64,000 bases of DNA, taken from assembly GCA_036169735.1 (NCBI GenBank), contig JAVHNX010000051.1, positions 8,569-72,568 of the forward strand. Reading direction: 5' to 3'. The translations under genes and the position numbers were made by a program. Every line of letters begins with the position of its first letter. Within the stretch, counting starts at the first letter, position 1. This document shows, piece after piece, positions 4,761-54,213 of the stretch. The stretch comes from Minisyncoccota bacterium. Lineage in GTDB: Bacteria; Patescibacteriota; Minisyncoccia; Phycocordibacterales; UBA9973. The notes below the pieces were generated by a model, which had not been told where the DNA came from, made no database searches, and saw nothing but the letters and a program-made list of their open reading frames with translations.

Positions 4761-6281
4761 TTATTTTTCCAAATCTAGAATTTCATCAATCCTAATTTGT
4801 TTTACGAATTCTGGTACGTGAGAAACCAAGATCATCGCTCCTTGGTATTTATCCAGCGCTTCGGCAATTACCGGCAAGTGACGGAAGTTTATATGGTTTG
4901 TTGGCTCGTCTAAGATGAGCAAGCCTGGCTTTTGAAGTACTAGTCTAGCAAAAGATACTAGACCTTTTTGTCCTTCAGACAAGCTACCAATACGAGTACG
5001 GATAAATTCTCCAGTAATCAAGAATCCTGCAGCAATAGAACGCATTCTTTCTTCATCCAATTTTTCTCCACCATCAAGCATTGCACTCGCAAGAGATTGG
5101 TACACTGTGTCGTCAAAATTGAGTGTAGAGAAGTCTTGTCGGTAATACCCAATACGAATACCTTCTTTGACTGTCTCCCCTTCAGACTTGCCACTCGCAA
5201 GTTTTTCCAACAAAGTACTCTTGCCAATACCATTAGGGCCGGCCAAAAGTAAGTGCTGATTTTTCTTCAAAGAAATATTCGCTTTATGTTTTACTATTTT
5301 ATGTTTTTTAGGATCCATTATCGAAAAAGAATTGATACTAAATATCTCACCAACCATATCTGGCTGAGATGGAATAGTAAAAGGTCGAATGGTCCTGTCT
5401 TCTTTGCGAACCTCCACAATATCTTCTTCAAGTTCTTCCGCTTTCTCACGCATACGTCGCGCAACTAATCTTAGTCGTCCTCCTTTGTGCGCGAAGACAT
5501 TGGCCTGATCTTTCTTGGCTTGAATTTCTTTTGCGAGTTGAGCGTTCTTTGCATTTTCTCTCTCGACTCGAGCAGTAATATCTTTCACCACATTAAAATA
5601 GTTCCCGACGTATTGTTCAATCTTTCGAGTATAAACATCTAAATACAGGACACCTTCAGTAAAAGCATTCAAAAATTCCGCATCGTGGGAAATAACCAAA
5701 ACAGTTTTTGTATAACTCATCAAAAATTTTGTCAGGTGAGCAATACCGGCTTTGTCGAGATTGTTTGTCGGTTCATCGAGCAAAAGTAAATCTGGGTCCT
5801 GAATAAGAGCAGAAGCCAAGAGTAAACGAGCTTGTTGACCACCAGAAAAAGTTTTAATTATTCTGTCATGCACTTTATCGTGGCCTTTTAAATTTACTAC
5901 TTCTAAAATATCATTAATCTTTACATCAATGTTGTAAATCTTTTTTTGAACACCCTCACCCCGTTCCTCTCCCTTATGGAGAGGGGGTTCCATAAAACAT
6001 TTTTCAAAAAATTCTCGGACTGTTAGGTCAAGTTGATCACGAGGGATAACCTGTCGTGCGGAAGCGATAGTCAAACCTTTTACAACATTAATGATTCCGG
6101 ATTCCGGTTTGAAAGAACTAGAGATAAGTCCGAAGATAGTACTCTTTCCAGCACCATTCTGACCCATCAAAGTGAACTTTGCGCCACGGCGAATAGAAAA
6201 ACTAACCTCTTCTAAAATAGGTTTGTTTATTCCGAACTCAAACGAGACATCATCGAATCGAACTATAGTTTCTTGAGCCAT
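4761..6281 (-). CDS. ABC-F family ATPase (two tandem ABC domains, no TMD)
   Basis: Two Walker A motifs (GQNGAGKST, GPNGIGKST), two signature motifs (LSGGQ, LSEGQ) and two Walker B motifs (LLLDEPTN, LILDEPTNH). Contains an in-frame GC-rich palindromic element at 5951-5992. Confidence 0.85.
   Translation of the reverse strand: MAQETIVRFDDVSFEFGINKPILEEVSFSIRRGAKFTLMGQNGAGKSTIFGLISSSFKPESGIINVVKGLTIASARQVIPRDQLDLTVREFFEKCFMEPPLHKGEERGEGVQKKIYNIDVKINDILEVVNLKGHDKVHDRIIKTFSGGQQARLLLASALIQDPDLLLLDEPTNNLDKAGIAHLTKFLMSYTKTVLVISHDAEFLNAFTEGVLYLDVYTRKIEQYVGNYFNVVKDITARVERENAKNAQLAKEIQAKKDQANVFAHKGGRLRLVARRMREKAEELEEDIVEVRKEDRTIRPFTIPSQPDMVGEIFSINSFSIMDPKKHKIVKHKANISLKKNQHLLLAGPNGIGKSTLLEKLASGKSEGETVKEGIRIGYYRQDFSTLNFDDTVYQSLASAMLDGGEKLDEERMRSIAAGFLITGEFIRTRIGSLSEGQKGLVSFARLVLQKPGLLILDEPTNHINFRHLPVIAEALDKYQGAMILVSHVPEFVKQIRIDEILDLEK
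5951..5992. repeat. GC-rich palindromic element, family A, inserted in-frame in the ABC-F gene
   Basis: CACCCTCACCCCGTTCCTCTCCCTTATGGAGAGGGGGTT encodes an extra peptide EPPLHKGEERGEGV. Same family as the copies at 9431, 18688 and 51356. Confidence 0.6.
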
Positions 6282-6514
6282 TGATACAATCTATCCTATT
6301 TGAGCCAAAATTGAAAGCTTTTTATCTCAATTGGCACAAATGACCTACTGAGTGTGGATAATTCAAATAGACTCTTTGACAAATACCCTGCAATGTACTA
6401 CACTTGTAGGGCATAAATAAGTCCTGAGCCTAAGGGTGAAATACTCAAGGGGTTCGAAAAGAGTCGATTTCTCGAAATACTTATTTTGTAATTTAATCAT
6501 ATAACAAAAAAATC

Positions 6515-6712
6515 ATGACTGGTATAATCAAAAGATTAACTGATAAAGGTTTTGGCTTCATTACTGGAGAGGGTCTTTCAAAAGATTTATTCTTCCACAG
6601 TAATTCTCTTGTCGGAGTAAATTTCGATGAGTTACACGAAGGTGACGCTGTTTCTTTCGAAACAGAAGAATCTCCAAAAGGATTGAACGCTGTAAACGTA
6701 CAACGCGCATAG
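6515..6712 (+). CDS. Cold-shock protein (CspA family)
   Basis: MTGIIKRLTDKGFGFI... carries the RNP1-like motif KGFGFI. 65 aa. Strong terminator downstream at 6723-6757. Confidence 0.85.
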   Translation: MTGIIKRLTDKGFGFITGEGLSKDLFFHSNSLVGVNFDELHEGDAVSFETEESPKGLNAVNVQRA

Positions 6713-6722
6713 TATTCAATAA

Positions 6723-6757
6723 AAAACACCCCGACCTTGGTCGGGGTGTTTTTTATT
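6723..6757. terminator. Bidirectional hairpin terminator
   Basis: AAAAACACCCCGACCTTGGTCGGGGTGTTTTTT. Confidence 0.7.
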
Positions 6758-7016: not shown

Positions 7017-7145
7017 ATTTAAAGTTAAATTTTCAGCAAATAAAGAATTTTGTTTTTAGGGGGTTTTTCGTGCGTCGGCACGAAAACTTCAGAATTTTTA
7101 AAGCTTTAAAAATTCGTACCCTAGAAAACAAAGTTCTTTATGGTG

Positions 7146-7450: not shown

Positions 7451-8014
7451 ATGATCGGTAGTATAAAAGGAAAAATAATCTTCAAAGCAGATAAATATCT
7501 GATAGTGGAAACAGGTGGCGTCGGATACAAAATAAATGTCTCCCCTGATGCTTCATTAATGGTTTTTAAAATTAATCAAGAAGTTTTTCTTTGGATTCAT
7601 ACTCATATAAGAGAAGATGCGATGGACCTTTATGGTTTCCTCGACATAAAAGAATTGGAATTTTTCGAAATGCTTATCAGCGTCTCAGGAATCGGACCTA
7701 GAAGTGGTCTCGCAATTTTAGGTATTGCTTCAATTGAAACTTTAAGAAAAGCTATCGGAACAAGTGATACTTCTTACCTCACAAAAATTTCTGGTATTGG
7801 TAGAAAAACAGCAGAAAAAATTGTTATCGAACTTCGAGACAAAATGGGTAAAGAAGAATCTGATGGTTCCCTTCAAGAAGAGATGGACACACTCGAAGCC
7901 TTGAAAGCTCTCGGCTACTCACAGTCTGAAGCGCGTGATGCCCTTAAACAAACCAAAGCAACAGATACTAATACAAAAATAAAAGAGGCTTTAAAGATTC
8001 TTGGGGGAAGATAA
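7451..8014 (+). CDS. ruvA: Holliday junction DNA helicase subunit RuvA
   Basis: MIGSIKGKI...LIVETGGVGYKINVS N-terminal OB domain, HhH region (ISGIGPRSGLAIL...ISGIGRKTAEKIV) and a C-terminal domain. Confidence 0.85.
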   Translation: MIGSIKGKIIFKADKYLIVETGGVGYKINVSPDASLMVFKINQEVFLWIHTHIREDAMDLYGFLDIKELEFFEMLISVSGIGPRSGLAILGIASIETLRKAIGTSDTSYLTKISGIGRKTAEKIVIELRDKMGKEESDGSLQEEMDTLEALKALGYSQSEARDALKQTKATDTNTKIKEALKILGGR

Positions 8015-8105
8015 AGCAAGATATCTTAAATTTTTTCCCACTACGCCCTCCTCGGAGTACCGAGCGGGACCCCTCATGGATAAAAAATTTAAGATATCTT
8101 GCTTT
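8014..8105. repeat. About 24-bp perfect inverted repeat (AAGCAAGATATCTTAAATTTTTT / AAAAAATTTAAGATATCTTGCTT) flanking a GC-rich hairpin (CTCGGAGTACCGAG)
   Basis: Seen directly. Begins at the ruvA stop codon. Could be a large terminator or a MITE-like insertion. Confidence 0.5.
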
Positions 8106-9142: not shown

Positions 9143-10085
9143 ATGCCTGAATTACCAGAAGTAGAGACAACCACTAGGGGCCTGAGAAAAGAGACTGTAG
9201 GCCTTAAAATAAAAGACGTTTGGACAGATTTAAATACCAAGGATAAACGTCAACATGATGCGGTCGCGAACCCGAAGTATTTTACTATTTTTAAAAAAGA
9301 AGTCGCGAACAAAAAAATAATATCAGTAGAAAGACAGGCAAAAAATATTTTGATAAATATGTCGGGTGGCAAAACTATTTTAATTCACCTAAAAATGACT
9401 GGTCATCTACTTTATGGAAAGTATAAATTTCACCCCTCCCCAACCCTCCCCTTAGCAAAGGGAGGGAGAAGTGTGGGGTCAATGGCTACCAGACGAACAG
9501 GGACCGCTACAAGACCCTTACAACAGGTTCATACATGTTATTTTTACTTTATCCAATAAAAAACATTTAGCTTTTTCAGATGCACGCAAATTTGGAAAGA
9601 TAACTTTGCTTGATACTAAAACAGCTCATGATTCAAGACATCTAAAAGATTTAGGACCAGATCCCCTATCTAAAGATTTTAGTTTAGAAAAATTTAAAGA
9701 AAGACTTTTTAAAAAACCAAATGGAAAAATAAAAACAATTCTAGTAGACCAGAGTGTACTCACTGGTATCGGAAATATTTATTCTGATGAAATACTTTGG
9801 TATGCAGGAATTCATCCAGAAAGAAGAGTGAAAGATATTAAGGAAAATGAATTCAAAAAAATGTTTCAAGTCACCAAAGAGACTTTAACTAAAGGTATAA
9901 ACTTTGGTGGAGACTCAATGTCAGATTACCGCAATATTTATGGTCTTCCAGGCAAATTTCAACTACACCACGAAGCTTATCATAGAACTGGGGAGAAATG
10001 CAGAAGAAAAGGATGCAAGGGTGTTATAATAAGAAAAGTTATTAATAGTCGGAGCGCACATTTTTGCTCCATTCATCAAATTTAA
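9143..10085 (+). pseudogene. fpg: Formamidopyrimidine-DNA glycosylase (Fpg/MutM), reading frame interrupted by a 49-bp GC-rich palindromic element (9431-9479)
   Basis: N-terminus MPELPEVE. C-terminal zinc finger CRRKGCKGV...CSIHQ. The two ORFs (9143-9559 and 9471-10085) are both Fpg segments in different frames. Removing nt 9431-9479 joins ...GKYKF to QWLPDEQGPLQDPYNRF... in frame. Confidence 0.75.
9431..9479. repeat. GC-rich palindromic element, family A (49 bp), disrupting fpg
   Basis: CACCCCTCCCCAACCCTCCCCTTAGCAAAGGGAGGGAGAAGTGTGGGGT. Its reverse complement matches the family A consensus CCTCCCCCTTnnnAAGGGGGAGGnTGGGAGGGGGT. Confidence 0.7.
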
Positions 10086-16432: not shown

Positions 16433-16556
16433 TAATGAAAATTATAGCATTTATAGTGATTTTATTTAAAAAACGGTAGGTCTTGCCTACAGCTTACATT
16501 ATTGTTCCAGTTCACGTTCACCTTACAAAGCTCGCCTTTTGCAATAAAACCATCTC

Positions 16557-16608
16557 TTCCGCTAGGTTTCCGCTAGGTCTTTCCGCTAGGTCTTGCCTAG
16601 CGGAAGAT
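16557..16608. repeat. REP-like hairpin cluster (left flank of RAYT): TTCCGCTAGGT tandemly repeated three times, then the inverted copy CCTAGCGGAAG
   Basis: Seen directly. Forms the hairpin CTTCCGCTAGG-tcttg-CCTAGCGGAAG. A partial related hairpin (GTAGGTCTTGCCTAC) lies at about 16470. Confidence 0.7.
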
Positions 16609-17257
16609 TATAATTGAACCAATCAAAAACTTCTTGCCAAAAAACATCTTCAGTTGGAAAATACTTCGGAAAAGATTTCCTATCTAAAATCTTTTCCTCT
16701 ACTCTTTTGAATCCGGAATAATCAAGGAAACTTGAGTATTGATAATTTTTAAGATAATTTAACGTAATATTTTTATTTTTAATACCCTTTTCTATCCATT
16801 CTTTATCTATTAGTTTAATGGGATTAAAATGAATATAAGAAAATACATATTTCAAATATTGATCAGTATTGAGATGTTGTGATTTAAACTTACCTTCGAA
16901 TAATCCACCTGTTCGCTTATATTTTTTATTATAATACATCACATAAGCAGTAGAAAGCTTTTGCATAAATTTACTTAGGTTCCCATCATCTCCTTGAGTA
17001 ATCAATAAATGAAAATGATTAGGCATCAAACAATATGCTCCGATACTAACTAATGGACTATTTCTATCTATATCAAATAAAGTATCTCCTTTCGACAAAT
17101 TATCAATTTTAAAGTTATCTTTCTGGTTACAAGCATACAAAAGACCAATAAAGTGAACATAATCTTCTTTACTATTAAAAATTTTTTGCTTACTGTTTCC
17201 CCTATTATAAATATGATAATACTCACCTAGAGCAAACGGCACTGTGCGTATAGACAT
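16586..17257 (-). mobile_element. REP-associated tyrosine transposase (RAYT; IS200/IS605-type Y1 HUH transposase TnpA)
   Basis: Conserved motifs YHIYNRGN.KQ.IF and LMPNHFHLLI (HUH). Flanked by inverted REP-like hairpins at 16557-16608 and 17277-17316. Start chosen at MSIRTVPF; the ORF track extends to 17329 through the REP. Confidence 0.75.
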
Positions 17258-17276
17258 AATATTATTATATACTTTC

Positions 17277-17316
17277 CTCTCCGCTAGGCAAGACCTAGCG
17301 GAAGACCTAGCGGAAC
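17277..17316. repeat. REP-like hairpins (right flank of RAYT): CCGCTAGGcaagacCTAGCGGAAGACCTAGCGGAA
   Basis: Same CCGCTAGG/CCTAGCGG palindrome as the left flank, in inverted orientation. Confidence 0.7.
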
Positions 17317-18462: not shown

Positions 18463-18951
18463 TTATAGTCCTTTTATCTTGAAGCTTCTATGCCCTTCTT
18501 TGGTATGCGAGATTGAAATCTTGTGATGTTTTTTCGGCATAGCTTTTTTAACATTCTCCGGCCATTCAATAAAAACTAAATGTTCTGGGTTTGAAATTAT
18601 TTCTGCCCAGCCTAGATTTAAGAGTTCTTGTTCGTTTTTTAATCTGTATGCGTCTAAGTGAAAAAGATTCTTGAACCCGTTCTTTCTCCTCCCCCTTACC
18701 AAGGGGGAGGTTGGGAGGGGGTTCTTCAGTGGATACCGCCTCATAATCACATAAGTCGGACTATTCACCTTGCCCTTGATACCCAAAAGTTTCGCGACGG
18801 CTTGAGTGAAAGTAGTCTTCCCTGTTCCGAGTTCACCCGACAAACCAATAACGCACGCGTTTTTACATTCTTTATTTAAAACGGTATCGAGGAATTCTTC
18901 CGCTATCTTTTCTGTGTCTTTTTGATTTTTTGAAATTATCTTATTTGGCAT
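18463..18951 (-). CDS. tsaE: tRNA threonylcarbamoyladenosine biosynthesis ATPase TsaE (YjeE)
   Basis: P-loop LSGELGTGKTTFTQ and the ...SPTYVIMRRYPL...HLDAYRL pattern. Contains an in-frame family-A element adding about PLPTSPLVRGRR. Confidence 0.75.
   Translation of the reverse strand: MPNKIISKNQKDTEKIAEEFLDTVLNKECKNACVIGLSGELGTGKTTFTQAVAKLLGIKGKVNSPTYVIMRRYPLKNPLPTSPLVRGRRKNGFKNLFHLDAYRLKNEQELLNLGWAEIISNPEHLVFIEWPENVKKAMPKKHHKISISHTKEGHRSFKIKGL
18688..18723. repeat. GC-rich palindromic element, family A, in-frame in tsaE
   Basis: CCTCCCCCTTACCAAGGGGGAGGTTGGGAGGGGGTT. Confidence 0.65.
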
Positions 18952-20056: not shown

Positions 20057-21754
20057 ATGGCACCATTTGACGAAGAAAAACAAAACAAACAACTAGATGA
20101 TTTACACAAGCTAGAAGAAGAGCAGTTAATCGAAGTTCTAGCAGAATCAAAATATAATCTACCTTATATAGACTTATCTCGTTTGGGTATAGACAACGAA
20201 GCTCTTCGTGCGATATCCGAAACTGAAGCACGTGAAATGAAAGTCGCTCCTTTTAGACTTTCTGGCAAGAATATTTTCATCGCGGTCCGTTCCCCTTCAG
20301 AAGATCTTTTGGGAAAATTAAAAGATGCAATGGAAAGAAAAAATCTAGTCGCAACTTTTTATATGGTATCGATGGCGAGCCTAAACAAAGTTTGGGATAG
20401 ATATAAAGAAATTTCTTTGGCTGAGAATTCAAAAGTTGGTGGGTTAGATATTTCTGGAGAAATTTTGTCAGAAACTGCAAAAGATATTAAAAAAATGCAA
20501 GACATTGAAGTCCTAATTACAGGTGCAATGACAGGAAACCAGAAACATAAAATTTCTCATATTCTTGAAATAATACTAGCGGGTGCAATTTCAATCAAAG
20601 CTTCTGATATCCACATCGAACCAGAAGAAAATCGTGGAAGACTACGTCTTAGACTCGATGGTGTTCTCCAAGATGTTATGTTTTTTGGAATGGATATTTA
20701 TCGTCTATTAAATTCTCGTCTAAAACTTCTTTCCGGAATGAAACTAGCAACAAGAATTGCTCAAGACGGACGCTTTAGTATTGAAGAAGGAAACGAAGAA
20801 ATAAGTATTCGTGCTTCTATGATACCTGGTACTTATGGTGAATCAATTGTTATGCGTATCTTGGATCCAAAATCCATTCAAGTGAAACTAGAAGATATGG
20901 GTATTGAACCTTTTCTTTTTAGTACGATTCAAGAAGAGATAGCTAAACCAAACGGTCTTATTTTGGTTACTGGTCCGACAGGATCAGGAAAAACCACGAC
21001 TCTTTATGCCTTTTTAAGAAAAATATATTCTTCCGAAATAAAAATCATCACTATTGAAGACCCAGTAGAATATCACCTAACTGGAATAACTCAGACACAG
21101 ACAGACGCAAAAAAGGGTTACACCTTCCTGGAAGGTTTACGTTCCGCTCTCCGTCAGGACCCAGATGTGGTAATGGTTGGAGAAATACGAGATGCCGAGA
21201 CTGCAAAGATCGCAGTCGAATCTGCTTTGACAGGACACTTGGTTTTTTCAACACTCCACACAAATAATGCAGCGGGTGTTATCCCTCGTCTTATTGATCT
21301 GGATGTTAACCCAAAGATTATGGTATCAGCTTTGTCTCTTTCTATTGCTCAGCGTCTTGTCCGTAAGCTTTGCCAAGAATGTAAAAAGGAAGCATCCCCA
21401 ACTGCCGAAGAAGCAGCTAGTATCAAGCTAGTAGTAGATAGTATCAAAGCAGAAAACAAAGATCTTAAAAATTATAATATAAACCCTGATGCTCCTTTCA
21501 AAATATTTTCTGTTGTTGGTTGTGAAAAATGTAACATGACGGGATACAAAGGACGAATCGGTATTTTTGAAGCTATCAAAACCGATGAAGCTATTGAAAA
21601 AATAATTCCAGAAAATCCAAGTGAACGTGAAATTAAAAAAGTGGCTCGAACACAAGGAATACTTTCCATGCGCCAAGATGGTGTAGTAAAAATTTTGAAT
21701 GGTGTCACCTCTCTCGAGGAAGTACAGAGTGTCGTTGATTTAAAAGAAGAATAA
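20057..21754 (+). CDS. pilB: Type IV pilus assembly / type II secretion ATPase (PilB/GspE family)
   Basis: Walker A GPTGSGKTT, Asp box DPDVVMVGEIRD, His box GHLVFSTLHTN and C-terminal tetracysteine CQEC...CEKCNMTGYKGRIGIFE. Confidence 0.85.
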   Translation: MAPFDEEKQNKQLDDLHKLEEEQLIEVLAESKYNLPYIDLSRLGIDNEALRAISETEAREMKVAPFRLSGKNIFIAVRSPSEDLLGKLKDAMERKNLVATFYMVSMASLNKVWDRYKEISLAENSKVGGLDISGEILSETAKDIKKMQDIEVLITGAMTGNQKHKISHILEIILAGAISIKASDIHIEPEENRGRLRLRLDGVLQDVMFFGMDIYRLLNSRLKLLSGMKLATRIAQDGRFSIEEGNEEISIRASMIPGTYGESIVMRILDPKSIQVKLEDMGIEPFLFSTIQEEIAKPNGLILVTGPTGSGKTTTLYAFLRKIYSSEIKIITIEDPVEYHLTGITQTQTDAKKGYTFLEGLRSALRQDPDVVMVGEIRDAETAKIAVESALTGHLVFSTLHTNNAAGVIPRLIDLDVNPKIMVSALSLSIAQRLVRKLCQECKKEASPTAEEAASIKLVVDSIKAENKDLKNYNINPDAPFKIFSVVGCEKCNMTGYKGRIGIFEAIKTDEAIEKIIPENPSEREIKKVARTQGILSMRQDGVVKILNGVTSLEEVQSVVDLKEE

Positions 21755-21880
21755 AAAGTGATTAAAGAGACTTGGGAGCGCGACGGCGCGAGCACGAGGA
21801 ATTTTTTAGCAAAAAAATATCCGTGCTCTTTAATTACTATTTATTTTTATTTTTCTTTTTTAAATTAGCAATAAAAAAAA

Positions 21881-23718: not shown

Positions 23719-23720
23719 AA

Positions 23721-23764
23721 CCCTACCCCGGAGATAGGGGATTTCCCCTATCCCCGGGGTAGGG
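23721..23764. repeat. GC-rich palindromic element, family C (near-perfect 21-bp arms around a TTT loop)
   Basis: CCCTACCCCGGAGATAGGGGATTTCCCCTATCCCCGGGGTAGGG. Shares the TAGGGGATTTCCCCTA core with the copy at 31853. Confidence 0.65.
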
Positions 23765-23783
23765 TGCGTGCTAAACTTTAACT

Positions 23784-24414: not shown

Positions 24415-24573
24415 ATGGACGAAGAAGAAGAATCAATCGAAGAAAAGAGTTTTAGTTCAAGTAGTATCGATGATGAAAATTTTAATGATGATCTAGGTGA
24501 TACATTAGATCCGTTAGAAGTATCTGACCTGGGTATTGAAGACGATGATGATATTGATAAACTAGAAGAATAA
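24415..24573 (+). CDS. Small highly acidic hypothetical protein (52 aa)
   Basis: ATG ORF MDEEEESIEEKSFSSSSIDDENFNDDLGDTLDPLEVSDLGIEDDDDIDKLEE. Followed by a strong hairpin terminator at 24581-24607. Not in the ORF track because it is under 60 aa. Confidence 0.35.
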   Translation: MDEEEESIEEKSFSSSSIDDENFNDDLGDTLDPLEVSDLGIEDDDDIDKLEE

Positions 24574-24580
24574 TAAAAAA

Positions 24581-24607
24581 TCCTCCGATCTAATCGGAGG
24601 ATTTTTT
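24581..24607. terminator. Bidirectional hairpin terminator
   Basis: TCCTCCGATCTAATCGGAGGATTTTTT. Confidence 0.65.
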
Positions 24608-24609
24608 AT

Positions 24610-25998: not shown

Positions 25999-26134
25999 TA
26001 TAACAGCAAACGAGGAGCATAAACAAGTTCACTTGTTTAATGTCCGAGAGCAGCTGTTATATGGTAATCCATATAACAGCAAACGAGGAGCGTAGACAAG
26101 CTTGCTTGTATAACGTCCGAGTGCTGCTGTTATA
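25999..26134. repeat. Two tandem 63-bp imperfect palindromic units (period 73 bp) in the tyrS/PBP divergent intergenic region
   Basis: Unit 1 (25999-26061) and unit 2 (26072-26134) share the outer arms TATAACAGC...GCTGTTATA. The inner hairpin differs by compensatory changes (ACAAGTtcACTTGT versus ACAAGCttGCTTGT). Confidence 0.6.
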
Positions 26135-26150
26135 TAGTATTCTATATAAC

Positions 26151-28690: not shown

Positions 28691-28701
28691 AAAAACAAAA
28701 A

Positions 28702-28722
28702 GCCCCCGACCGAAGTCGGGGG
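28702..28722. terminator. Hairpin terminator, followed by a second hairpin
   Basis: GCCCCCGACCGAAGTCGGGGGC plus T-run, then TACGGAGGCAACGCCTCCGTA. Confidence 0.65.
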
Positions 28723-31762: not shown

Positions 31763-31852
31763 TAGTTCCTATTATACTATCCCTTTCAACTTAAGGAACT
31801 TCCCAAAACTTATTAACTATGTTTATAAGCTGTTGATAACTTTTTTAATAAT

Positions 31853-31898
31853 CCCCTATGTCAGACTTAGGGGATTTCCCCTAAGTCTGACATAGGGG
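31853..31898. repeat. GC-rich palindromic element, family C (perfect 22-bp arms, TTT loop) in the dnaA-rpmH intergenic (origin) region
   Basis: CCCCTATGTCAGACTTAGGGGATTTCCCCTAAGTCTGACATAGGGG. Confidence 0.7.
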
Positions 31899-31954
31899 AA
31901 ATATGTGGTTAATCAAAATTTGATTTATTATAAATAATGTTATAGTATGTACTC

Positions 31955-32492: not shown

Positions 32493-32673
32493 TTTTTATC
32501 AAAAACATTTAAGCCCTCTAAAACGGCCTAGTTGTGTTTTTTATCCTACTTGTTCTGAGTATACCAAAGAAGCTATTAATAAATATGGTATTTTAAAAGG
32601 TGTTTTTCTGGGAATTAGACGTATTTTGCGTTGCCATCCTTGGCAGAAAAATCATATTGATCCCGTTGTGTAA
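32458..32673 (+). CDS. yidD: Membrane protein insertion efficiency factor YidD
   Basis: [11 protein letters not shown] motif (CxFxPSCSxY). Overlaps the rnpA 3' end. Start chosen at MKLKLY. Confidence 0.75.
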
Positions 32674-32796
32674 AAACCTAGTTATCAAAAATTTTCTGGC
32701 GGCCAAGACGCAGCCAGTGTCCGCAGGCGAAAATCTTTAGTAATCGTTTTTTATTGTATATTTTGCATTTTACTTATTTTCATATAGAATGGACTA

Positions 32797-33554: not shown

Positions 33555-34046
33555 ATGGATAAAACAGAAATACAAAACTTAATAAAAGAATTGATTGAAA
33601 ATATGGCAATTTCCGTTAAAGAAATTGTTGTTTCCCAAGAAGATGATTCTAAAACCGTTTGGTATTCAGTAAGTGTTTCTGAACCACATTTCTTTACTAC
33701 TCGCGAAGGAGAGGCTCTTGCTTCTCTTAATCACCTTGTTAGAAGGATTATTGAATCTAAAACCCCTATGTCAGACATAGGGGAAGCTAAAAATGCACAA
33801 TATAATCCTATCCTGATAGATATTGGTGATTTTCAAAAGAAAAGAGTAGCAAATATTAAAACAATCGCTCATATGATGGCTGAGAGAGCTCGTTATTTCA
33901 AATCAAATATAGAAGTTGACCCAATGTCTGCTTTTGACCGTCGTATTGTACACGAGCATCTTTCAAATGCTACAGACCTTAAGACAGAATCATCTGGTTT
34001 TGGTCCTACTCGCCGAGTTGTTATTAAATATATTGGAGAACTCTAA
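33555..34046 (+). CDS. Jag-like KH/R3H RNA-binding protein
   Basis: C-terminal R3H segment FDRRIVHEHLSN...GFGPTRRVVIKY. Position after yidC. Contains an in-frame family-C palindrome (33763-33783) adding about TPMSDIG. Confidence 0.7.
   Translation: MDKTEIQNLIKELIENMAISVKEIVVSQEDDSKTVWYSVSVSEPHFFTTREGEALASLNHLVRRIIESKTPMSDIGEAKNAQYNPILIDIGDFQKKRVANIKTIAHMMAERARYFKSNIEVDPMSAFDRRIVHEHLSNATDLKTESSGFGPTRRVVIKYIGEL
33763..33783. repeat. GC-rich palindrome, family C (short form CCCCTATGTCAGACATAGGGG), in-frame in the jag-like gene
   Basis: Same arms as the 31853 copy but lacks the inner TTAGGGGATTTCCCCTAA core. Confidence 0.6.
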
Positions 34047-34066
34047 AATAAAGATTTTTGTTTTAG

Positions 34067-34131
34067 AAAGCATTGCGCAGGCCGACGGGCCGAGCATAGC
34101 AAATTTTCAGCAGAAAATTATGTGCGGTTTA
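34067..34131. repeat. GC-rich palindromic element, family B (intergenic)
   Basis: AAAGCATTGCGCAGGCCGACGGGCCGAGCATAGCAAATTTTCAGCAGAAAATTATGTGCGGTTT. Confidence 0.65.
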
Positions 34132-34163
34132 TAAAATATAAATCTTTATTTTAGAGTTGGGTT

Positions 34164-44517: not shown

Positions 44518-46185
44518 TTATTTTTTGAAATAATACTCATACCCACTGGTGTTTTTCAAGCCAGAAGTTAAATTTTGGATATTTATGATTCTTGAGTTGT
44601 AATATTCATAAACGGTAATCTTATTGGCAACAACTTTGATTTGATAAGCAGCAATATCGGGTTGACTGACGCGTACTTCTTTACCACTTGCACTGACATA
44701 ACCGAATACTTTTGCGAAAAAGTCCGCGAGTGTCCAAGCAAAAGATGTAAGGTTCTCCCCTTCTTGATAACCGTATAGTTTTGCTAGATTTTTGTCAGCG
44801 ATTATTTGTCGAGCGAAAACTGTCTCGATACCTTCATGATAATGTACAGTGGCGTCTCCTGGTGGAGTTGCGATTGTACCTATTGTTAAAGTTGTTGTCG
44901 TTGTTGTGGTTGTTCCAGTACCAGTTCCAGTGCCTCCACCACCATTTGGATCTACACAATTAGGATAAGTACCTTCCCATCCACTCGGACAAACACCATT
45001 GTTATTATTTGGACCAACACAGTTAGGATAAGTACCAGTCCATCCACTTGGACAAATGTTACCGCCACCACCATTTGGATCTACACAATTAGGATAAGTA
45101 CCTTCCCATCCACTCGGACAGTTGGTGGTATCAATCAAACCATCTCCCCCATCAGTTGCTCTAGTTTTAAAACTTAAAATTCCTCCGTCAAAAGTTTGAA
45201 CACCATCAGCTGTCTCTGCCTTGAATACATAATTATATTTTGTGTTTGGTGTTAATCCAGTTAAAGGGAAAGTCATAGTTCCAAAAGTATTAGCTGCATG
45301 AGTTTCATCGCCTACTCTCGTCCATGGTGACGCAGGATGTGCTTCACCTATTGTATTTACGTTTGATAAAGTTCCATAAGTATAAGAGTTATTTTGTGCA
45401 TTAAGCAATGCAGATAATGCTTGGGAATTCATACCTATTGTTCCTTGATTAACAGTGTTTATTGTGTTGGTGTTGTATTGTGTATTGAGTATAGAGGGTT
45501 CTAGTTGAGAATTCATACTTACTGGGTTCATATTTAAAGGATTAGTATTGTTTTGTGTATTAAGTAACGTTGCTACTTGAGCATTAACACTAGCCGTTGC
45601 TTCGCTGATAGCTGCGTTGGGATTAAAAACAAAACTAGTGTCTTTTTTATACTCGAAATAAGTATTAACAGAATCTACAGATCTGTACGATCCTCTTATA
45701 TCGGTTGATGTTGTGTCTATATTTGATGCATTGATTGTCGTTGCGACAGTTTGGGCACAAGTTGGACATGGATCGGTTGTAAAACTTTTAACTTCTCCGT
45801 ATACAATTGATTTCTTGTTTGAAACAATACTGCAGTAATGATAAGTTGTGCTTGGTTCTAAATCGGTTATATGTTGACTAAAAGATTGTGCTCCACCATA
45901 TTCATTAAAATTTTTAATATCTTTGGTTGATACCATATTATTTCCATAAATTTCATTACAAAAAACAGGAGCTATCTCTGTATCAGAATATCTGAAATAT
46001 GCAGTTGTTGTTAGTCTTGGATTTAAACTTAAATCTGGTGACACTGTTCCGTGAAGTGTAGCTTCTGTGTCAGTGACAATATCCGCACCACCAGTAGTGA
46101 CAGCGAGAGCAGCGAGAGAAATACCCGGCTTGAAAAATACAAGGGATAATATGATTATAAGTAATATTGTTTTTATGTTTTTCAT
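44518..46185 (-). CDS. Secreted protein with three tandem Cys-containing repeats CPSGW(E/T)GTYPNCV(D/G)PN and a poly-Thr tract
   Basis: Signal peptide MKNIKTILLIIILSLVFFKPGISLA. At DNA level there are about 60-bp tandem repeats at about 44935-45125. Confidence 0.55.
   Translation of the reverse strand: MKNIKTILLIIILSLVFFKPGISLAALAVTTGGADIVTDTEATLHGTVSPDLSLNPRLTTTAYFRYSDTEIAPVFCNEIYGNNMVSTKDIKNFNEYGGAQSFSQHITDLEPSTTYHYCSIVSNKKSIVYGEVKSFTTDPCPTCAQTVATTINASNIDTTSTDIRGSYRSVDSVNTYFEYKKDTSFVFNPNAAISEATASVNAQVATLLNTQNNTNPLNMNPVSMNSQLEPSILNTQYNTNTINTVNQGTIGMNSQALSALLNAQNNSYTYGTLSNVNTIGEAHPASPWTRVGDETHAANTFGTMTFPLTGLTPNTKYNYVFKAETADGVQTFDGGILSFKTRATDGGDGLIDTTNCPSGWEGTYPNCVDPNGGGGNICPSGWTGTYPNCVGPNNNNGVCPSGWEGTYPNCVDPNGGGGTGTGTGTTTTTTTTLTIGTIATPPGDATVHYHEGIETVFARQIIADKNLAKLYGYQEGENLTSFAWTLADFFAKVFGYVSASGKEVRVSQPDIAAYQIKVVANKITVYEYYNSRIINIQNLTSGLKNTSGYEYYFKK
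44935..45125. repeat. Three tandem 60-bp coding repeats (copies 1 and 3 nearly identical)
   Basis: CCACCACCATTTGGATCTACACAATTAGGATAAGTACCTTCCCATCCACTCGGACA appears twice and a diverged copy lies between. Confidence 0.7.
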
Positions 46186-50098: not shown

Positions 50099-50162
50099 TT
50101 TTTCTTGGTTTCAAGGGAAAGTCTTGTCTAACGCAAGATTATACCCATTAATTATAAATTAA

Positions 50163-51104
50163 CTATTTTTTCTTACTTTTCCTAATTAAATTCATTTCAT
50201 ACCTTTGTATTGCATCAAGCGACGTTTTCCAATTTCTACCCTCTTTTACCCCCGCAACTTTACCAGTACGGACAAGAAGTCCAAGGTATTCCGCATCATA
50301 TTTTGTTTGCGGAGCTATTTTTGATAGGGATAATAAGGTATTTTCTTTAGTAGAATTTTTTATTGCTTTTATATATAAATCCAAGGAACGTTCAACTGCT
50401 TGAGAAATAAAAAGAACTAAATCTTCTATTTGGTTTTTATCAGCTTTCTGTAAAGCTTTATAATATTTTGTCCTGTCATTTTTAAGAATCACAACAATTG
50501 GATAACCTTGTTTCATTAAAATGATATTTAAAATCAATCTGCTCACCCGTCCATTACCATCACCAAAAGGATGAATAAAAACAAAACGATGTTTAAATTC
50601 TGTTGCTAAAGTAACAATGTCCAACTTGTTTTTATTTTCCTTATACCAATCTAGCAAATCCTTCATTTTATGAGGTACTTCAAATGCAGGTGATGGAGTA
50701 TGTTTGCTCCCAGTTATACGCACATCATAAGTGCGATATGAGCCAGCTTCCACCCCATCAATATTCTGCACCACCAAACTATGCAAATTTCTTATGAGCA
50801 TTTCAGAAAGCGGAATATCTTTTTTACTATCTACTACATCATATAAATATTCAATCGCTTTCGCTTGGTTTTTTACTTCCAAATGATCCTTGAATGATTT
50901 CCCTTTGACTGTAATACCTTGTTGTAAGACAAGCATTGTCTCTCGTAGGGTAAGAGTATTCCCTTCTATTGCATTTGAATTGTAATTCATCTCAATAGAA
51001 AATTGTTCACGCAGTTTATTTACTAGGTAAGGAGGAAAAGGCCGTACTTTTTTTAGTATAACTAATTTATCTTCTATTCTTTTTAAAATAAACGTATTTC
51101 TCAT
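50163..51104 (-). CDS. Fic-family protein (class II, with intrinsic inhibitory motif)
   Basis: Fic motif HPFGDGNGRVSRL. The N-terminal SNAIEGN matches the (S/T)xxxE(G/N) inhibitory helix motif. Confidence 0.8.
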   Translation of the reverse strand: MRNTFILKRIEDKLVILKKVRPFPPYLVNKLREQFSIEMNYNSNAIEGNTLTLRETMLVLQQGITVKGKSFKDHLEVKNQAKAIEYLYDVVDSKKDIPLSEMLIRNLHSLVVQNIDGVEAGSYRTYDVRITGSKHTPSPAFEVPHKMKDLLDWYKENKNKLDIVTLATEFKHRFVFIHPFGDGNGRVSRLILNIILMKQGYPIVVILKNDRTKYYKALQKADKNQIEDLVLFISQAVERSLDLYIKAIKNSTKENTLLSLSKIAPQTKYDAEYLGLLVRTGKVAGVKEGRNWKTSLDAIQRYEMNLIRKSKKK

Positions 51105-51176
51105 ATTATTTTATAATATCATTAATATCGGATAACTTCATTTAGTATACTATCCGATGTTAAGAAAAGCAAGTAG

Positions 51177-52160
51177 CTACTGAGCTAGCGAAATCCAATC
51201 TTCTAGTTTCAGTTCTTCGGCTCGTTTGTTTCCTAGCTCGGTTTTTTTGTATTGGACACCTGCATCTGCAAGGTTTTTTGAAAGTTTCTTTCTTTTGTGA
51301 GCAAAACCAGCTTTTACTATTTCCCAGAATTTCTCTTCGTCTGTATTTTTGTTCTCCTCCCCCTTAATAAGGGGGAGGCTGGGAGGGGGTGAATTTAAGA
51401 ACCTCACCCCAACCCCCTCCTCAACAAGGAGGGGGGTAAAAAAATTCTTCCTAGAAATATTTTTGATAGCTATCACAGCTGAATCCACTTTAGGTGCTGG
51501 TGAAAAATATCTTGCTGGTACTTTCATTATTATTTTTGGTTCTCCGTAAGCCTTTACTGATATAGATAAAATACTTTCTTTGCCGTCTCGTGCGACTATT
51601 CTTTTTGCTACTTCGTGTTGAACCATCAAGACCATTGTTTCAGGCTGATGTGCGTCTGTTAGGAATTTTTTTAATATTGCGCCGGTTATGTTGTATGGGA
51701 TGTTTGCGATTATTTTATAATCTTGAAGGATATTACTTTGAAAACCGCACATATTTCCCTGCTGGGAAATTGCTATGCTCGGCCCGTCGGCCTCCGCAAT
51801 GCTTTTCAAAACAATATTCTTCAAGATTATTTCGAGGTTTAACTCCAAAATATCTCCCCTAATTAAAACTAATTTTTTGGTAGCTATTTCTTCACTAAAT
51901 TTTTCGGTAAGTGTCTCAATAAGGTCACGATCTTTTTCTACAGCTATTACTACCCCTGCTTTTTCTAGAAGCTTTTCAGTAAGAGCTCCTTTGCCTGGGC
52001 CAATTTCTAAAATGACATCAGTAGGTGTTATATCCCCCGCTTCTACTATAGCCCGTAAGGCTGGTTCTGATTTTAGGAAGTTTTGTCCTAAAGCCTTTTT
52101 GGCTCGGACGAACCCGTGTACGGGTTTTAGTTCTAATGATTTTTTTGCTTTATGTATCAT
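51177..52160 (-). CDS. ksgA: 16S rRNA (adenine1518/1519-N6)-dimethyltransferase RsmA/KsgA, carrying two in-frame palindromic-element insertions
   Basis: KKALGQNFL...ILEIGPGKGALT SAM motif. At 327 aa it is long for KsgA. The extra segments TPLLVEEGVGVRFLNSPPPSLPLIKGEE (family A) and SIAEADGPSIAISQQGNMCGF (family B) account for the excess. Confidence 0.8.
   Translation of the reverse strand: MIHKAKKSLELKPVHGFVRAKKALGQNFLKSEPALRAIVEAGDITPTDVILEIGPGKGALTEKLLEKAGVVIAVEKDRDLIETLTEKFSEEIATKKLVLIRGDILELNLEIILKNIVLKSIAEADGPSIAISQQGNMCGFQSNILQDYKIIANIPYNITGAILKKFLTDAHQPETMVLMVQHEVAKRIVARDGKESILSISVKAYGEPKIIMKVPARYFSPAPKVDSAVIAIKNISRKNFFTPLLVEEGVGVRFLNSPPPSLPLIKGEENKNTDEEKFWEIVKAGFAHKRKKLSKNLADAGVQYKKTELGNKRAEELKLEDWISLAQ
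51356..51437. repeat. GC-rich palindromic element, family A, two head-to-head copies in-frame in ksgA
   Basis: CCTCCCCCTTAATAAGGGGGAGGCTGGGAGGGGGTG...CTCACCCCAACCCCCTCCTCAACAAGGAGGGGGGT. Confidence 0.65.
51741..51806. repeat. GC-rich palindromic element, family B (reverse orientation), in-frame in ksgA
   Basis: AAAACCGCACATATTTCCCTGCTGGGAAATTGCTATGCTCGGCCCGTCGGCCTCCGCAATGCTTTT. Confidence 0.65.
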
Positions 52161-52179
52161 GAATTTATTAATTACAAGT

Positions 52180-54213
52180 TTACAGATAGATTGTTTTCAC
52201 TCCACTTTCTTCGCCTTCTTTTTCTAGTATATCATCTGGAATATTGGAAATAAATTCTGACGGAGTATTGATTTGTCGTGAACCGAAAATAGTTCGGTAG
52301 TTTGCATATGATAAAAACAATTTTTCTTTCGCACGAGTAAGAGCAACATAAAAAAGTCTTCTTTCTTCTTCAGAATCCTCTCCTGATCTTGTCTCACCAA
52401 ATTTTCGATGAGGAAAGAGTCCGTCTTCGAGTCCAGTTATAAAAACATATTTAAATTCAAGACCTTTTGATGCATGGACAGTCATTAATTTTACCCCAGT
52501 CTTGACCTCCTTCTTCTTATCATCATTAATCATAATACTGTCTTGGTCTGATGCGAGTGACGCATCTTCTAAAAGTTTTTCTACACCTGAACCATTTTCT
52601 AGTGCGTCATATTTAAGAGCTAAGGTCACCAATTCTTTTATATTTTCTAATCTTTCAGTATCTTCTTCTGTTCCAGTCATGAGTTCATTTTCTATACCAG
52701 ATTTTTTTACTGCGAATTTTATAACATCGGAGACTTTTGAATTTTCTATTTTTTCTTTTATTTCTTCCAATGTTTTATAAAAGTTATCCACTTTTATTTT
52801 TACTTTAATTGGTAGGGTTTCTTTTTCACCACTAAATATTTTTGCCATTGTGACTTTCCCAATCCCTCTGACCGGGAAGTTTATAATACGTCTGATGTCC
52901 GATAGACTTTCTGGGTTGAGTGCGGCGCGAAGATATGAGAGAGTGTCCTTTATCTCTTTTCTTTCAAAGAATTTAACACCCAGAACTTGATAAGGGACAT
53001 TGTATCTAAGTAACGCTTCTTCGAGTGCACGGGATTGGAAATTAGCCCTATATAATATGGCTACTTCGGACAGGATACTATTATTAAAACCGCACATATT
53101 TCCCTGCTGGGAAATTGCTATGCTCGGCCCGTCGGCCTGCGCAATGCTTTTAATAACAGTGTCCTGTCCTTTGTTTGAGCTGTTATCTAATATCTCTAAA
53201 ATTTTTGTCGCGACAAAATCAGCTTCGTCATTTTCTGCTAATCCTTCATATAAAGTTATTTTTTCACCAGCTGAATTTTGAGTAAATAGATTTTTGTCGG
53301 GTCGATATTTGTTTTTTTTAATAACTTCATTGGCGGCTTCTAAGATATTTTTAGTGGATCGGTAATTTTCTTCTAATAAAACTATTTTTGCATTTGGGTA
53401 ATCTTTTTCAAAATTTAATATATTTTTTAAATTTGCACCACGCCAAGAATAAATATTTTGATCAGCATCTCCGACGACACAGATATTTTTATTATTTTCT
53501 GAAAGTATTTTTGACATCAAGTACTGCACTTCGTTTGTATCTTGGTACTCATCGATGTGTATATACTCCCATTTTTCTTGATAACTTTTTCTTATCTGTT
53601 CGTTTTCTTTTAATAACTTAACTGCCTTTAAAAGTAAATCATCAAAGTCTAAAGAATTTTCTTTGTTTTTTTTGTTTTCGTATAAAGACCAAACTTGTGC
53701 AACAATCTTACTAAGATAGTCACTGGCATTTTCTGAGTAATCTGATAGATGCGTAAATTTACCTTTTTCTCTGCTGATAATACCTTTTATTTTTTTTGGT
53801 TCGTACTGTTTAGGATCTAAACTTATTTCTAGTATTGCTTCTTTTACCAGTGCGACAGAACTTGATTCGTCTAAAATAGTGAAATACTTTGTAAGCCCTA
53901 GAATTCTCGCATTTTCTTTGATTATAAAGACCCCTAGAGAGTGGAAAGTACTAACAAAAGGAATAGTATCATGCCCTTTAGCATTTTTTTCTATTTCTAA
54001 TATTACACGTTCCCTCATTTCTTTTGCTGCTTTGTTTGTGAAAGTAACAGCCAGGATCTTTTCTGGAGCAGTTCCTTGTTTAATTAAATTAACGATTCGG
54101 TGTGTAATCGTCTTTGTTTTTCCAGCTCCTGCGCCAGCCACAATAAGAAGCGGCCCATTCATGTGAATAGCCGCTTCTTTTTGTGCATTATTAAGTCCTT
54201 TCAAATGTTCCAT
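52180..54213 (-). CDS. pcrA: ATP-dependent DNA helicase, UvrD/PcrA/Rep family
   Basis: LNNAQKEAAIH..GPLLIVAGAGAGKTKTITHRI (motifs Q and I), plus ...VGDADQNIYSWRGA... and the later helicase motifs. Contains the in-frame family-B element (SIAQADGPSIAISQQGNMCGF). Confidence 0.85.
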   Translation of the reverse strand: MEHLKGLNNAQKEAAIHMNGPLLIVAGAGAGKTKTITHRIVNLIKQGTAPEKILAVTFTNKAAKEMRERVILEIEKNAKGHDTIPFVSTFHSLGVFIIKENARILGLTKYFTILDESSSVALVKEAILEISLDPKQYEPKKIKGIISREKGKFTHLSDYSENASDYLSKIVAQVWSLYENKKNKENSLDFDDLLLKAVKLLKENEQIRKSYQEKWEYIHIDEYQDTNEVQYLMSKILSENNKNICVVGDADQNIYSWRGANLKNILNFEKDYPNAKIVLLEENYRSTKNILEAANEVIKKNKYRPDKNLFTQNSAGEKITLYEGLAENDEADFVATKILEILDNSSNKGQDTVIKSIAQADGPSIAISQQGNMCGFNNSILSEVAILYRANFQSRALEEALLRYNVPYQVLGVKFFERKEIKDTLSYLRAALNPESLSDIRRIINFPVRGIGKVTMAKIFSGEKETLPIKVKIKVDNFYKTLEEIKEKIENSKVSDVIKFAVKKSGIENELMTGTEEDTERLENIKELVTLALKYDALENGSGVEKLLEDASLASDQDSIMINDDKKKEVKTGVKLMTVHASKGLEFKYVFITGLEDGLFPHRKFGETRSGEDSEEERRLFYVALTRAKEKLFLSYANYRTIFGSRQINTPSEFISNIPDDILEKEGEESGVKTIYL
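53086..53152. repeat. GC-rich palindromic element, family B (reverse orientation), in-frame in the helicase gene
   Basis: Nearly identical to 51741-51806 (CCTGCGCAATG versus CCTCCGCAATG). Confidence 0.65.

Follow-up and report, generated by a model that had tools for sequence, protein, structure and literature searches.

In-frame GC-rich hairpin elements of several families in conserved genes of a Patescibacteria genome

A 64,000-nt stretch from a Minisyncoccota bacterium (hereafter the window; GenBank assembly GCA_036169735.1, contig JAVHNX010000051.1, positions 8,569 to 72,568) contains at least 15 short GC-rich hairpin elements of at least four families, termed A to D, and seven of these elements lie within genes. 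They represent structured repeats that differ in occurrence between close relatives, preserve the reading frame of the genes in which they reside, and are absent from orthologues. The explanation that we consider probable, if far from certain, is that they are mobile hairpin elements whose spread depends on their structure and whose in-gene copies are tolerated as translated loop insertions, similar to the Rickettsia palindromic elements (RPEs) or to intragenic repetitive extragenic palindromic (REP) sequences. In this reading, the elements would be selfish and the inserts would be translated.

The window comes from a small, gene-dense and AT-rich genome of the Patescibacteria (candidate phyla radiation, CPR) that is Minisyncoccia- or Nomurabacteria-like. 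In a protein search, the nearest relatives of its KsgA are proteins from metagenome-assembled genomes (MAGs) labelled Minisyncoccia, Candidatus Nomurabacteria, Paceibacteria or Patescibacteria, and an exact-protein look-up returned no identical KsgA on record. Minisyncoccia is a class within the phylum Minisyncoccota (taxonomy look-up), which we take to be equivalent to the CPR/Patescibacteria group. The GC content of the window is 34.8%, compared with 48–64% for the elements, and by a mechanical estimate ~89% of the window falls within open reading frames (ORFs) of at least 80 aa. The nearest genome on record is GCA_049287045.1, for which the loci L001, L041 and L006 are syntenic over 32 kb of the window, with an identity of 89–92% in MAFFT alignments and of ~93% in the best BLAST blocks.

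The elements and their host genes

The original prediction for this stretch, which was made from the sequence alone, listed 11 copies of three palindromic families. All of them are found where they were placed, the sequence read at each site agrees with the respective consensus, and all three motifs are more frequent in the window than in shuffled sequence. For the 10-mer of family A, 7 matches with at most one mismatch were counted with 1.9 expected (0 of 100 shuffles reached 7), for the 32-mer of family B 3 matches with at most three mismatches with 0 expected, and for the 14-mer of family C 6 matches with at most two mismatches with 0.09 expected. A self-BLAST of the window gives back the same repeat pairs. 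The list was incomplete, however, and the elements at 7047–7134, 21754–21841 and 8013–8105 have to be added. The features are as follows, where R1 denotes a covariance model built from 44 copies of family B:

5946..5993, minus strand: family A in the ABC-F gene (4761–6281, minus strand), encodes MEPPLHKGEERGEGVQ
7047..7134, plus strand: B superfamily, a diverged member of higher AT content, in the intergenic region upstream of ruvA (R1 33.3 bits, E 1e-5)
8013..8105, unstranded: family D, 47-nt GC-rich core with perfect 23-bp AT-rich arms, absent in L041
8105..8263, plus strand: family B, intergenic, between ruvA and an amidase gene (48 bits; hairpin-2 position of 51 nt, compared with 10 nt in the model)
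9431..9482, plus strand: family A in fpg, frame broken within or just past the element
16557..17315, minus strand: REPtron-like unit, a gene like that of a REP-associated tyrosine transposase (RAYT; 16589–17257) between inverted hairpins TTCCGCTAGG-TCTTG-CCTAGCGGAA
18684..18722, minus strand: family A in tsaE (18463–18951), encodes NPLPTSPLVRGRRK
21754..21841, plus strand: diverged member of the B superfamily, a GC island just 3' of ORF 20057–21754 (R1 50.5 bits, E 4.5e-10)
23720..23765, unstranded: family C palindrome, intergenic, after yebC, centre TAGGGGATTTCCCCTA common with the copy at 31852, outer arms different
31852..31899, unstranded: family C, perfect nested palindrome upstream of dnaA (30419–31762)
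33763..33783, plus strand: family C, 21-nt palindrome CCCCTATGTCAGACATAGGGG in jag, 14 nt common with the copy at 31852, encodes TPMSDIGE, weakest member
34039..34158, plus strand: family B, intergenic, overlapping the last jag codons, 31-bp stem (101.5 bits), orthologous copy in L006
51341..51441, minus strand: family A doublet in ksgA, head-to-head units that form one long hairpin, encodes FFTPLLVEEGVGVRFLNSPPPSLPLIKGEENKNTD
51717..51830, minus strand: family B in ksgA, core 51742–51805, 28-bp stem (104 bits), encodes ...NIVLKSIAEADGPSIAISQQGNMCGFQSNIL...
53068..53169, minus strand: family B in pcrA, core 53087–53150, 22-bp stem (103 bits), encodes GQDTVIKSIAQADGPSIAISQQGNMCGFNNSILS

The same elements occupy the same loci in independent NCBI, JGI and ENA assemblies, which rules out assembly chimeras, the artefact that had been named as a possible undoing of the prediction.

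Six copies had been assigned to ABC-F, TsaE, KsgA (two copies), PcrA and Jag with the frame maintained, and Pfam matches (ABC-F 4761–6281, TsaE 18463–18951, Jag/R3H 33555–34046, KsgA 51177–52160 and PcrA 52180–54213) together with the translations bear this out. The insert peptides that had been quoted are correct as well, and the inserted segments include KSIAQADGPSIA and PLPLIKGEE. The frame is therefore kept in six of the seven genic copies. The seventh, at 9431–9482, belongs to those that had been taken as intergenic, but sits within fpg and breaks its frame, such that the gene falls into two ORFs that overlap but differ in frame (9143–9559 and 9471–10085) and match the N-terminal and the H2TH part of Fpg, respectively. 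In L041 Fpg is intact (306 aa), with 30 unrelated nucleotides at the site of the A copy of the window, and the split gene is either a pseudogene or the result of an assembly error of 1 nt within a G/C run.

Alignments of the host proteins with their orthologues show that the segments are indeed lineage-specific insertions, as had been proposed, since they are absent from the close relative (ABC-F and KsgA site 2), from insert-free CPR orthologues and from solved homologues. The ABC-F insert accounts for 48 nt in the window vs 3 nt in L041, an in-frame gain of 45 nt. In TsaE a segment of 17 residues faces a gap in the alignment to Thermotoga maritima TsaE (6n9a_E), and in PcrA residues 349–382 (34 residues) face two residues of the Geobacillus stearothermophilus protein (1pjr), so that PcrA is longer by 32 aa; an empty PcrA slot is present in L141. 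In KsgA residues 114–146 face 8 residues, and residues 233–273 ~11 residues, of Bacillus subtilis KsgA, for which a structure has been solved, and the 101-nt stretch of the A doublet (51341–51441) is 75 nt longer than its counterpart in L001 (gaps of 16 and 59 nt). The copy in jag is present and in frame as described, but is just a 21-nt palindrome; no empty allele was seen for it, and L006 has the palindrome with one mismatch.

With 327 aa KsgA is long, as the original prediction had pointed out, compared with 252–256 aa in insert-free CPR orthologues, in which site 1 is non-palindromic, and the excess of 71 residues stems from three insertions rather than two: the B element, the A doublet and a duplicated 45-nt unit at the N-terminus. 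This unit, LELKPVHGFVRAKKA (~52092–52136), contains a small hairpin (AACCCGT-AC-ACGGGTT) and is present in one to four copies in orthologues. In the solved homologues of KsgA, PcrA and TsaE the gaps that correspond to the inserts fall between aligned blocks. An AlphaFold2 model of KsgA, calculated from an alignment of 121 sequences, has a core with a predicted local distance difference test (pLDDT) score above 93, from which the inserts protrude, with the B insert modelled as a helical hairpin (residues 109–144, pLDDT 59–85) and the A insert as coil (pLDDT ~50–63).

Anatomy and coding use

Family B is not a simple palindrome, but a two-hairpin core of 64 nt placed on a locus-specific, AT-rich stem. 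The original description of palindromic elements thus holds insofar as the copies form hairpins, yet the B copies are hairpins of 102–159 nt instead of palindromes of 64 nt. The copy listed at 8131 is a full B element that has 51 nt at the hairpin-2 position instead of the 10 nt of the model, and self-BLAST matches just the first ~44–49 nt of its core. In the AT-richer element at 7047–7134 hairpin 2 corresponds to the palindrome 7092–7115. Further copies of B were gathered with a core-junction pattern that fixes 22 of the 64 core positions, which yielded 44 matches in ~20 GTDB species genomes, nearly all of Patescibacteria type (Nomurabacteria, Paceibacterota, Minisyncoccia). The exceptions are a few matches labelled only as bacterium and two contigs of one Burkholderiales-labelled MAG, which we take as mis-binned. 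Metagenomes provided 94 further stretches, giving a total of 109 non-redundant copies. By contrast, the IMG/VR viral contigs contained zero copies, so that there is no sign of a phage vector.

The consensus structure of the B core calculated with RNAalifold comprises 32 base pairs, of which 17 display compensatory double changes. Among the hairpin variants, GGCC-GACG-GGCC alternates with GGCT..AGCC, and ATTTCCC/GGGAAAT with AATTTTC/GAAAATT, ATCCGCC/GGCGGAT and others. The stem starts with ~10 conserved proximal base pairs, followed by an outer stem (outer 15–25 bp) that is unique to each locus. According to ungapped extension the whole stem has a median length of 27 bp (range 9–45), with 2240 Watson-Crick, 118 G.T, 20 A.C and 52 other pairs over all copies. 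Folding of the elements, which had been suggested as a check, gave −45 to −51 kcal/mol for whole B hairpins with z-scores of −7 to −8 (−49.3 kcal/mol and −7.2 for the element in ksgA), and in the sense strand the fold is more stable by 5–10 kcal/mol than in the antisense strand. A longer B sub-family moves as a unit of ~120 nt, outside of which each locus adds a unique inverted repeat of 7–15 bp. The covariance model also recognises two further types, B2 and G, as well as H, which is G on the opposite strand. In a search of the window against Rfam 15 only two tRNAs reach the gathering score, B finds no match at E-values up to 10, and under permissive settings the A doublet gives chance matches to microRNA-like hairpins only.

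In total, 30 of the 109 B copies lie in open frames of at least 200 codons. Of these, 26 share one orientation and frame (KSIAQA...), one is in the +1 frame and three are antisense, one of the latter probably being located 5' of a gene. They correspond to eight independent coding slots, namely KsgA, PcrA, an Fmt-like gene, a protein of 390–430 aa, a protein of ~800 aa, and those in L085, L025 and L122/L128. Six of the slots have the same frame, that of L025 is in the +1 frame and that of L122/L128 is antisense, but all eight are open and preserve the frame of the host, which speaks for selection on compatibility with translation. A census of host proteins with a doubled profile of the B peptide retrieved just 15 tiny ORFs, which are probably spurious calls on intergenic copies. 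Variability in the core is not focused on the third codon position, and copies within and outside coding sequence vary in the same manner, indicating that the constraint acts on the nucleic acid and not on the peptide. Paired columns vary with compensation and the junctions are conserved, the unpaired junction nucleotides most of all. Approximately 70 copies are not spanned by an open frame of at least 100 codons. The idea that intergenic B copies represent terminators or regulators co-oriented with genes was dismissed, as their orientation relative to the neighbouring genes is about even.

Family A is built differently, with one arm composed of pyrimidines only and the other of purines only, followed by a G-rich tail, TGGGAGGGGGT or TGGGGTGAGG. 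Owing to this composition the arms are devoid of TAA, TAG and TGA on either strand, and only loops and linkers can hold stop codons. In six-frame tables five of six frames are open for the copy in TsaE, four for the copy in ABC-F and two for the doublet in KsgA, and A copies are found in different frames and in both orientations. By its composition family A is therefore compatible with coding. Considering the window and the fetched loci together, long ORFs contain 10 of the 12 A-like hairpins, and one more is found in the broken fpg; this proportion is close to the share of ORFs in the window (0.89). The centre of family C was found in one fetched locus only, and the core of family D had no further copy among the 141 fetched loci; D shares the plan of B in having a GC-rich core and perfect AT-rich arms.

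Turnover, explanations and further features of the window

Compared with the relative of ~90% identity, element-linked differences dominate the larger indels. The inserts in ABC-F and at KsgA site 2 are missing in the relative, as revealed by the comparison of empty sites that had been suggested, and a 90-nt indel relative to L041 takes in both arms of the D element. The ruvA–amidase spacer of L041 likewise holds a B element, though of another variant and in inverse orientation, a B hairpin of 147 nt is present only in the relative at window position ~10280, and upstream of dnaA L006 has another C variant at the same place. The arms in PcrA differ from those of the relative at many positions and are still complementary. 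Across genomes, the two KsgA sites and the PcrA site are occupied by different element families. In a survey of the 121 best KsgA hits, whose frequencies are upper estimates since the query itself carries inserts and skews the sample to insert-bearing proteins, site 1 is short in 49 and filled in 72 (14 with B, 30 with B2, ERTLG..KFSAENF, and 28 with other, unclassified inserts), while site 2 is short in 47 and filled in 74, many of the latter with A-like variants of the form PLLxxEGVG...PPxxKGE. The PcrA slot contains B, B2, G or inverted G, or is empty, depending on the species.

Two ideas on the arms were considered. Hypermutability does not apply, because the arms in KsgA and at 34 kb differ from the relative at about the genome-wide rate, and only those in PcrA have changed heavily. 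A model in which one arm is in each case derived from the native flank by inverted copying agrees with PcrA and KsgA, where the filled minus the empty allele equals core, proximal stem and one distal arm, but not with the two recent indels, in which core and both arms appear or disappear together; it should be noted that "empty" alleles may also be secondary deletions. A gap of 995 nt beside a B slot in L076 was inspected for a transposase, but holds a gene that, as read from its sequence, would encode a methyltransferase. This gene contains an in-frame GC-rich hairpin itself (GTTAGAGATCGCGAGGGCTCGCAACGGGCCTCTATCTCTAAC, L076 6840–6900).

Taken as mobile DNA, short GC-rich hairpin repeats of several families would have colonised a small AT-rich CPR genome, where they are gained, lost, swapped for a variant or flipped between genomes of ~90% identity. 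As ~89% of the window is in ORFs, many surviving copies would reside inside genes, and these would persist only if the frame is kept and a permissive surface loop is hit, and be carried as extra peptide loops that are themselves presumably functionless. Spread may proceed via recognition of the folded single strand, either by a Y1/HUH enzyme (RAYT/IS200) or by template switching during replication, and the locus-specific arms could arise or persist by fold-back or template-switch copying from one arm to the other. Candidate origins of the arms would be targeting of hairpin tips or palindromes, fold-back synthesis in the course of insertion, and a "correction" of one arm by the other through template switching, a process discussed for the coding palindromes of Nematomorpha. 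We know of no described bacterial transposon that inserts at hairpin tips or employs fold-back synthesis.

Among the genes seen, the RAYT-like one at 16589–17257 is alone in resembling a transposase; it scores 36.7 bits with Pfam PF01797 (cut-off 23) and 48.9 bits with the NCBIfam model for REP-associated tyrosine transposases, below its cut-off of 80. Homologues with flanking hairpins of their own are present in L128, L029/L067, L056 and L091/L050, which indicates that these genomes encode enzymes that act on hairpin DNA, and the Y1/HUH RAYT-like gene is a candidate for the class of enzyme that might move hairpin DNA. A degenerate GGTAGGTCTTGCCTAC hairpin is located at ~16477–16492, near the RAYT-like unit.

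Several points weigh against simple mobile elements. The hairpins that flank the RAYT-like gene (TTCCGCTAGG-type) do not belong to families A to D, so that no transposase is tied to these families, and filled and empty pairs revealed neither a direct target-site duplication nor common terminal inverted repeats. Furthermore, orthologous B cores in KsgA are 90% identical, compared with 66% for 2 × 240 nt of flanking coding DNA, a conservation that is overestimated due to the fixed collection pattern, as diverged B-like inserts exist, and that amounts to 84% at the 42 columns free of the pattern. The orthologous arms change together with the codons of the host; for example, the segments encoding KIMRN/IPHYF, EKIIKN/IFNNF and KFIED/ILNKF are exact or near-exact reverse complements. 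A core conserved at 84–90% vs ~66% for the host DNA, with compensated stems, is unlike decaying junk, and suggests continuing homogenisation or re-insertion, or function, rather than one-off junk. Finally, in the outer stems of non-coding B copies G.T pairs outnumber A.C pairs (26 vs 8, p 0.003); codons explain part of the excess, since GTT pairs with AAT at two stem positions that recur, and it is significant solely in these non-coding outer stems. This excess on one strand hints at strand-specific folding, which could be that of RNA.

In a further reading, the B superfamily would represent an undescribed, exchangeable and structurally conserved two-hairpin "cassette" placed at the tips of persistent locus-specific hairpin "slots", some of them in essential genes, which spreads by a mechanism that makes or targets inverted repeats of the flank, or is kept for a cellular role as RNA or DNA. 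We regard this as possible, but doubtful. Rather unlikely, in our view, is that the B hairpins are functional nucleic-acid modules, i.e. structured RNAs or protein sites in single-stranded or cruciform DNA, under purifying selection at each locus, which might serve in mRNA processing or stability, replication or chromosome organisation, with the genic location being a side effect of scarce intergenic space. Such a function would explain why the core surpasses an essential host gene in conservation, why compensatory changes affect 17 of 32 pairs and the junction nucleotides are the most conserved, and why the arms of orthologues co-vary while host residues change; the prevalence of G.T over A.C on one strand and the better folding of the sense strand point in the same direction. 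It is difficult to reconcile, however, with the presence, absence and variant swaps between genomes of ~90% identity, with the ~40% of surveyed KsgA orthologues that have no insert at each site, and with intergenic copies that show no preferred orientation. In addition, unrelated-looking and inverted cores occur in the same slot, the host genes are functionally unrelated, Rfam has no match, and the estimate of conservation is biased by the pattern used for collection.

In-gene copies might also be removed or skipped before they reach the protein, either as intervening sequences that are cut by an RNase III-like enzyme and religated, or by a translational bypass like that at the palindromic mitochondrial "byps" of Magnusiomyces, which we consider very improbable. 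Long perfect stems in mRNA are good substrates for RNase III, and the perfect stems of 22–31 bp would suit this enzyme. The fpg copy breaks the frame of an otherwise well-conserved gene, and bypass of palindromic inserts has been documented in yeast mitochondria according to work cited in PMC6649704. Removal would, however, free the inserts from any restriction on frame and stop codons, as for introns, intervening sequences and bypassed segments in general. Yet all eight B slots are open, six of them in one frame, which would be unexpected were the inserts removed before translation, and the lengths added by family A to ABC-F, TsaE and KsgA are all exactly divisible by 3 nt. Among the inserts, that in fpg alone appears free of coding constraint, and its shift fits a pseudogene or a 1-nt assembly error equally well. 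No ribozyme or intron family was matched. That the segments are ordinary, vertically inherited lineage-specific loops or assembly artefacts, with incidental nucleotide repeats, can be dismissed: although B in KsgA and PcrA is common to several species and looks vertically inherited there, and the palindrome in jag is short and has no empty allele, the same 64-nt sequence (~90% identity or more) recurs in KsgA, PcrA, the Fmt-like gene, others and ~70 non-coding copies, empty alleles are present in relatives both close and distant, the elements are found again in assemblies of separate projects, and the GC-rich codons of the cores oppose the AT bias of the genome, such that multi-locus identity, empty alleles and independent assemblies exclude it.

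The window displays several further features. A gene with a Fic/DOC domain (50163–51104, within ~50100–51175), located between ksgA and the next gene, is absent in L001 (gaps of 703 and 348 nt). A direct repeat with a period of 87 nt is found 3' of tRNA-Arg (3058–3184), of which L041 lacks one unit (86 nt). Three tandem repeats are at least partly located in long ORFs, namely an exact 56-nt repeat with copies 129 nt apart (44936–45120; 44936 and 45065), one with a 73-nt period (25999–26151) that straddles the start of ORF 26040–27626, and one with a 51-nt period (54956–55052), near which L001 has a 42-nt indel. Near-perfect palindromes with an A-run, a GC-rich stem and a T-run at 6718–6757, 24572–24610, 28692–28732 and 63333–63380 look like bidirectional intrinsic terminators, and those at 28692 and 63333 have the stem GCCCCCGACC in common. 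Between ORF 32350–32673 and yidC (32797–33549) lies a conserved GC-rich segment (32696–32729) that is also present in L006 and L029. It is inverted in L006 relative to the window (reciprocal gaps of 16–17 nt) and may be a small invertible or palindromic segment.

Significance and comparison with known systems

It is known that proteins of CPR/Patescibacteria often have unusual lengths and contain segments that align poorly. Inserts such as those described here, one of which is carried at each site by ~60% of the 121 closest KsgA orthologues (an upper estimate), can introduce errors into alignments and phylogenies as well as into predicted structures and called genes, the split fpg being an example of the effect on gene calling. 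They would extend the RPE phenomenon, i.e. hairpin DNA within essential proteins, to free-living or episymbiotic ultra-small bacteria. Moreover, the conserved core on locus-specific arms, the re-use of slots and a core that is better kept than the host gene render the question of movement testable, so that the movement and function of REP- and RPE-like hairpins can be addressed by comparative genomics of abundant metagenomic populations.

The likeness to RPEs that had been proposed is upheld as one of behaviour, since multi-copy hairpin families are found in frame in unrelated conserved genes and are absent from orthologues; membership of families RPE-1 to RPE-10 is not claimed. RPEs are palindromic repeats located in frame in unrelated housekeeping genes (Ogata 2000, 2002, as summarised in PMC10969869), and share with the elements of the window that there are several families per genome and that the host genome is reduced. 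In RPEs the peptide is placed at sites where the fold tolerates it, which is predicted for the inserts of the window as well. However, RPEs measure ~100–150 bp and have a family-wide sequence over their full length, whereas B consists of a 64-nt core with locus-specific arms and resides in a different phylum. RPEs lose their repeat identity over time (according to the discussion in PMC6649704), and B is unlike them in this respect, as the conservation of its core exceeds that of the host gene. That different families make use of one and the same slot likewise sets the window elements apart from RPEs.

With the REP/REPIN-RAYT systems the elements share short GC-rich stem-loops that occur singly or as head-to-head dimers (PMC3733652; PMC3116915); the doublet of family A in KsgA resembles a dimer of the REPIN type, and a RAYT-like gene is placed between inverted hairpins in the window. 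REPs are imperfect palindromes of 20–40 nt with a GTAG or CGTC tag at one end, and such a terminal tag is absent from the A to D copies that were read, with CGTC found solely in the loop of hairpin 1 of B, in antisense. In a REPtron the same repeats flank the RAYT gene, whereas A to D do not flank the one found here. REPs are mostly extragenic, while A is mostly intragenic (10 of 12 and the fpg copy) and 30 of 109 B copies are in frames of at least 200 codons, and a REP is a single stem-loop in contrast to the three-way structure of B. Intragenic REP-type repeats are, however, known from several bacteria, often in replication and repair genes, where they encode 20–30 aa (PMC3733652). Since such repeats are thus already known outside Rickettsia, it is the lineage and the anatomy that are new and not the kind of element.

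MITEs (miniature transposable elements with inverted repeats; Correia, ERIC, BOX and others) are small non-autonomous repeats that are at times fused in frame to ORFs (PMC10969869). They have terminal inverted repeats common to all copies and direct target-site duplications, whereas in B every locus has outer arms of its own.

In fungal mitochondria double-hairpin elements (DHEs) represent comparable hairpins, and an optional in-frame GC cluster is found in yeast mitochondrial var1. The GC clusters of yeast mitochondria, as well as fungal and sponge hairpin elements, are GC-rich hairpins in compact AT-rich genomes, as here (PMC4478555; PMC2800124), and GC clusters also resemble the elements in their structurally constrained stems, fast turnover of units, merging, shuffling and some coding copies. 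The GC42 clusters are mobile and have a putative short direct target duplication (PMC4478555). By contrast, no such duplication is seen here, and the GC clusters belong to organelle genomes and lack a long locus-specific AT-rich stem. Mitochondrial genes of Nematomorpha contain long near-perfect inverted repeats in coding sequence with both arms translated, the identity of the arms appears to be actively maintained, and template switching has been proposed (PMC6649704). These palindromes are native coding sequence without a common mobile core, whereas here a multi-copy conserved core is located at the tip of the hairpin.

The original prediction knew of no description of such elements for this kind of genome, and a full-text literature search, with incomplete coverage and hence no proof of absence, likewise found no published description for CPR/Patescibacteria. 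Compared with the systems above, the new aspects are the lineage, the density, a three-way core carried by arms specific to each locus, slots that are used in turn by different families and in different orientations, and a core that is better conserved than the essential gene that hosts it.

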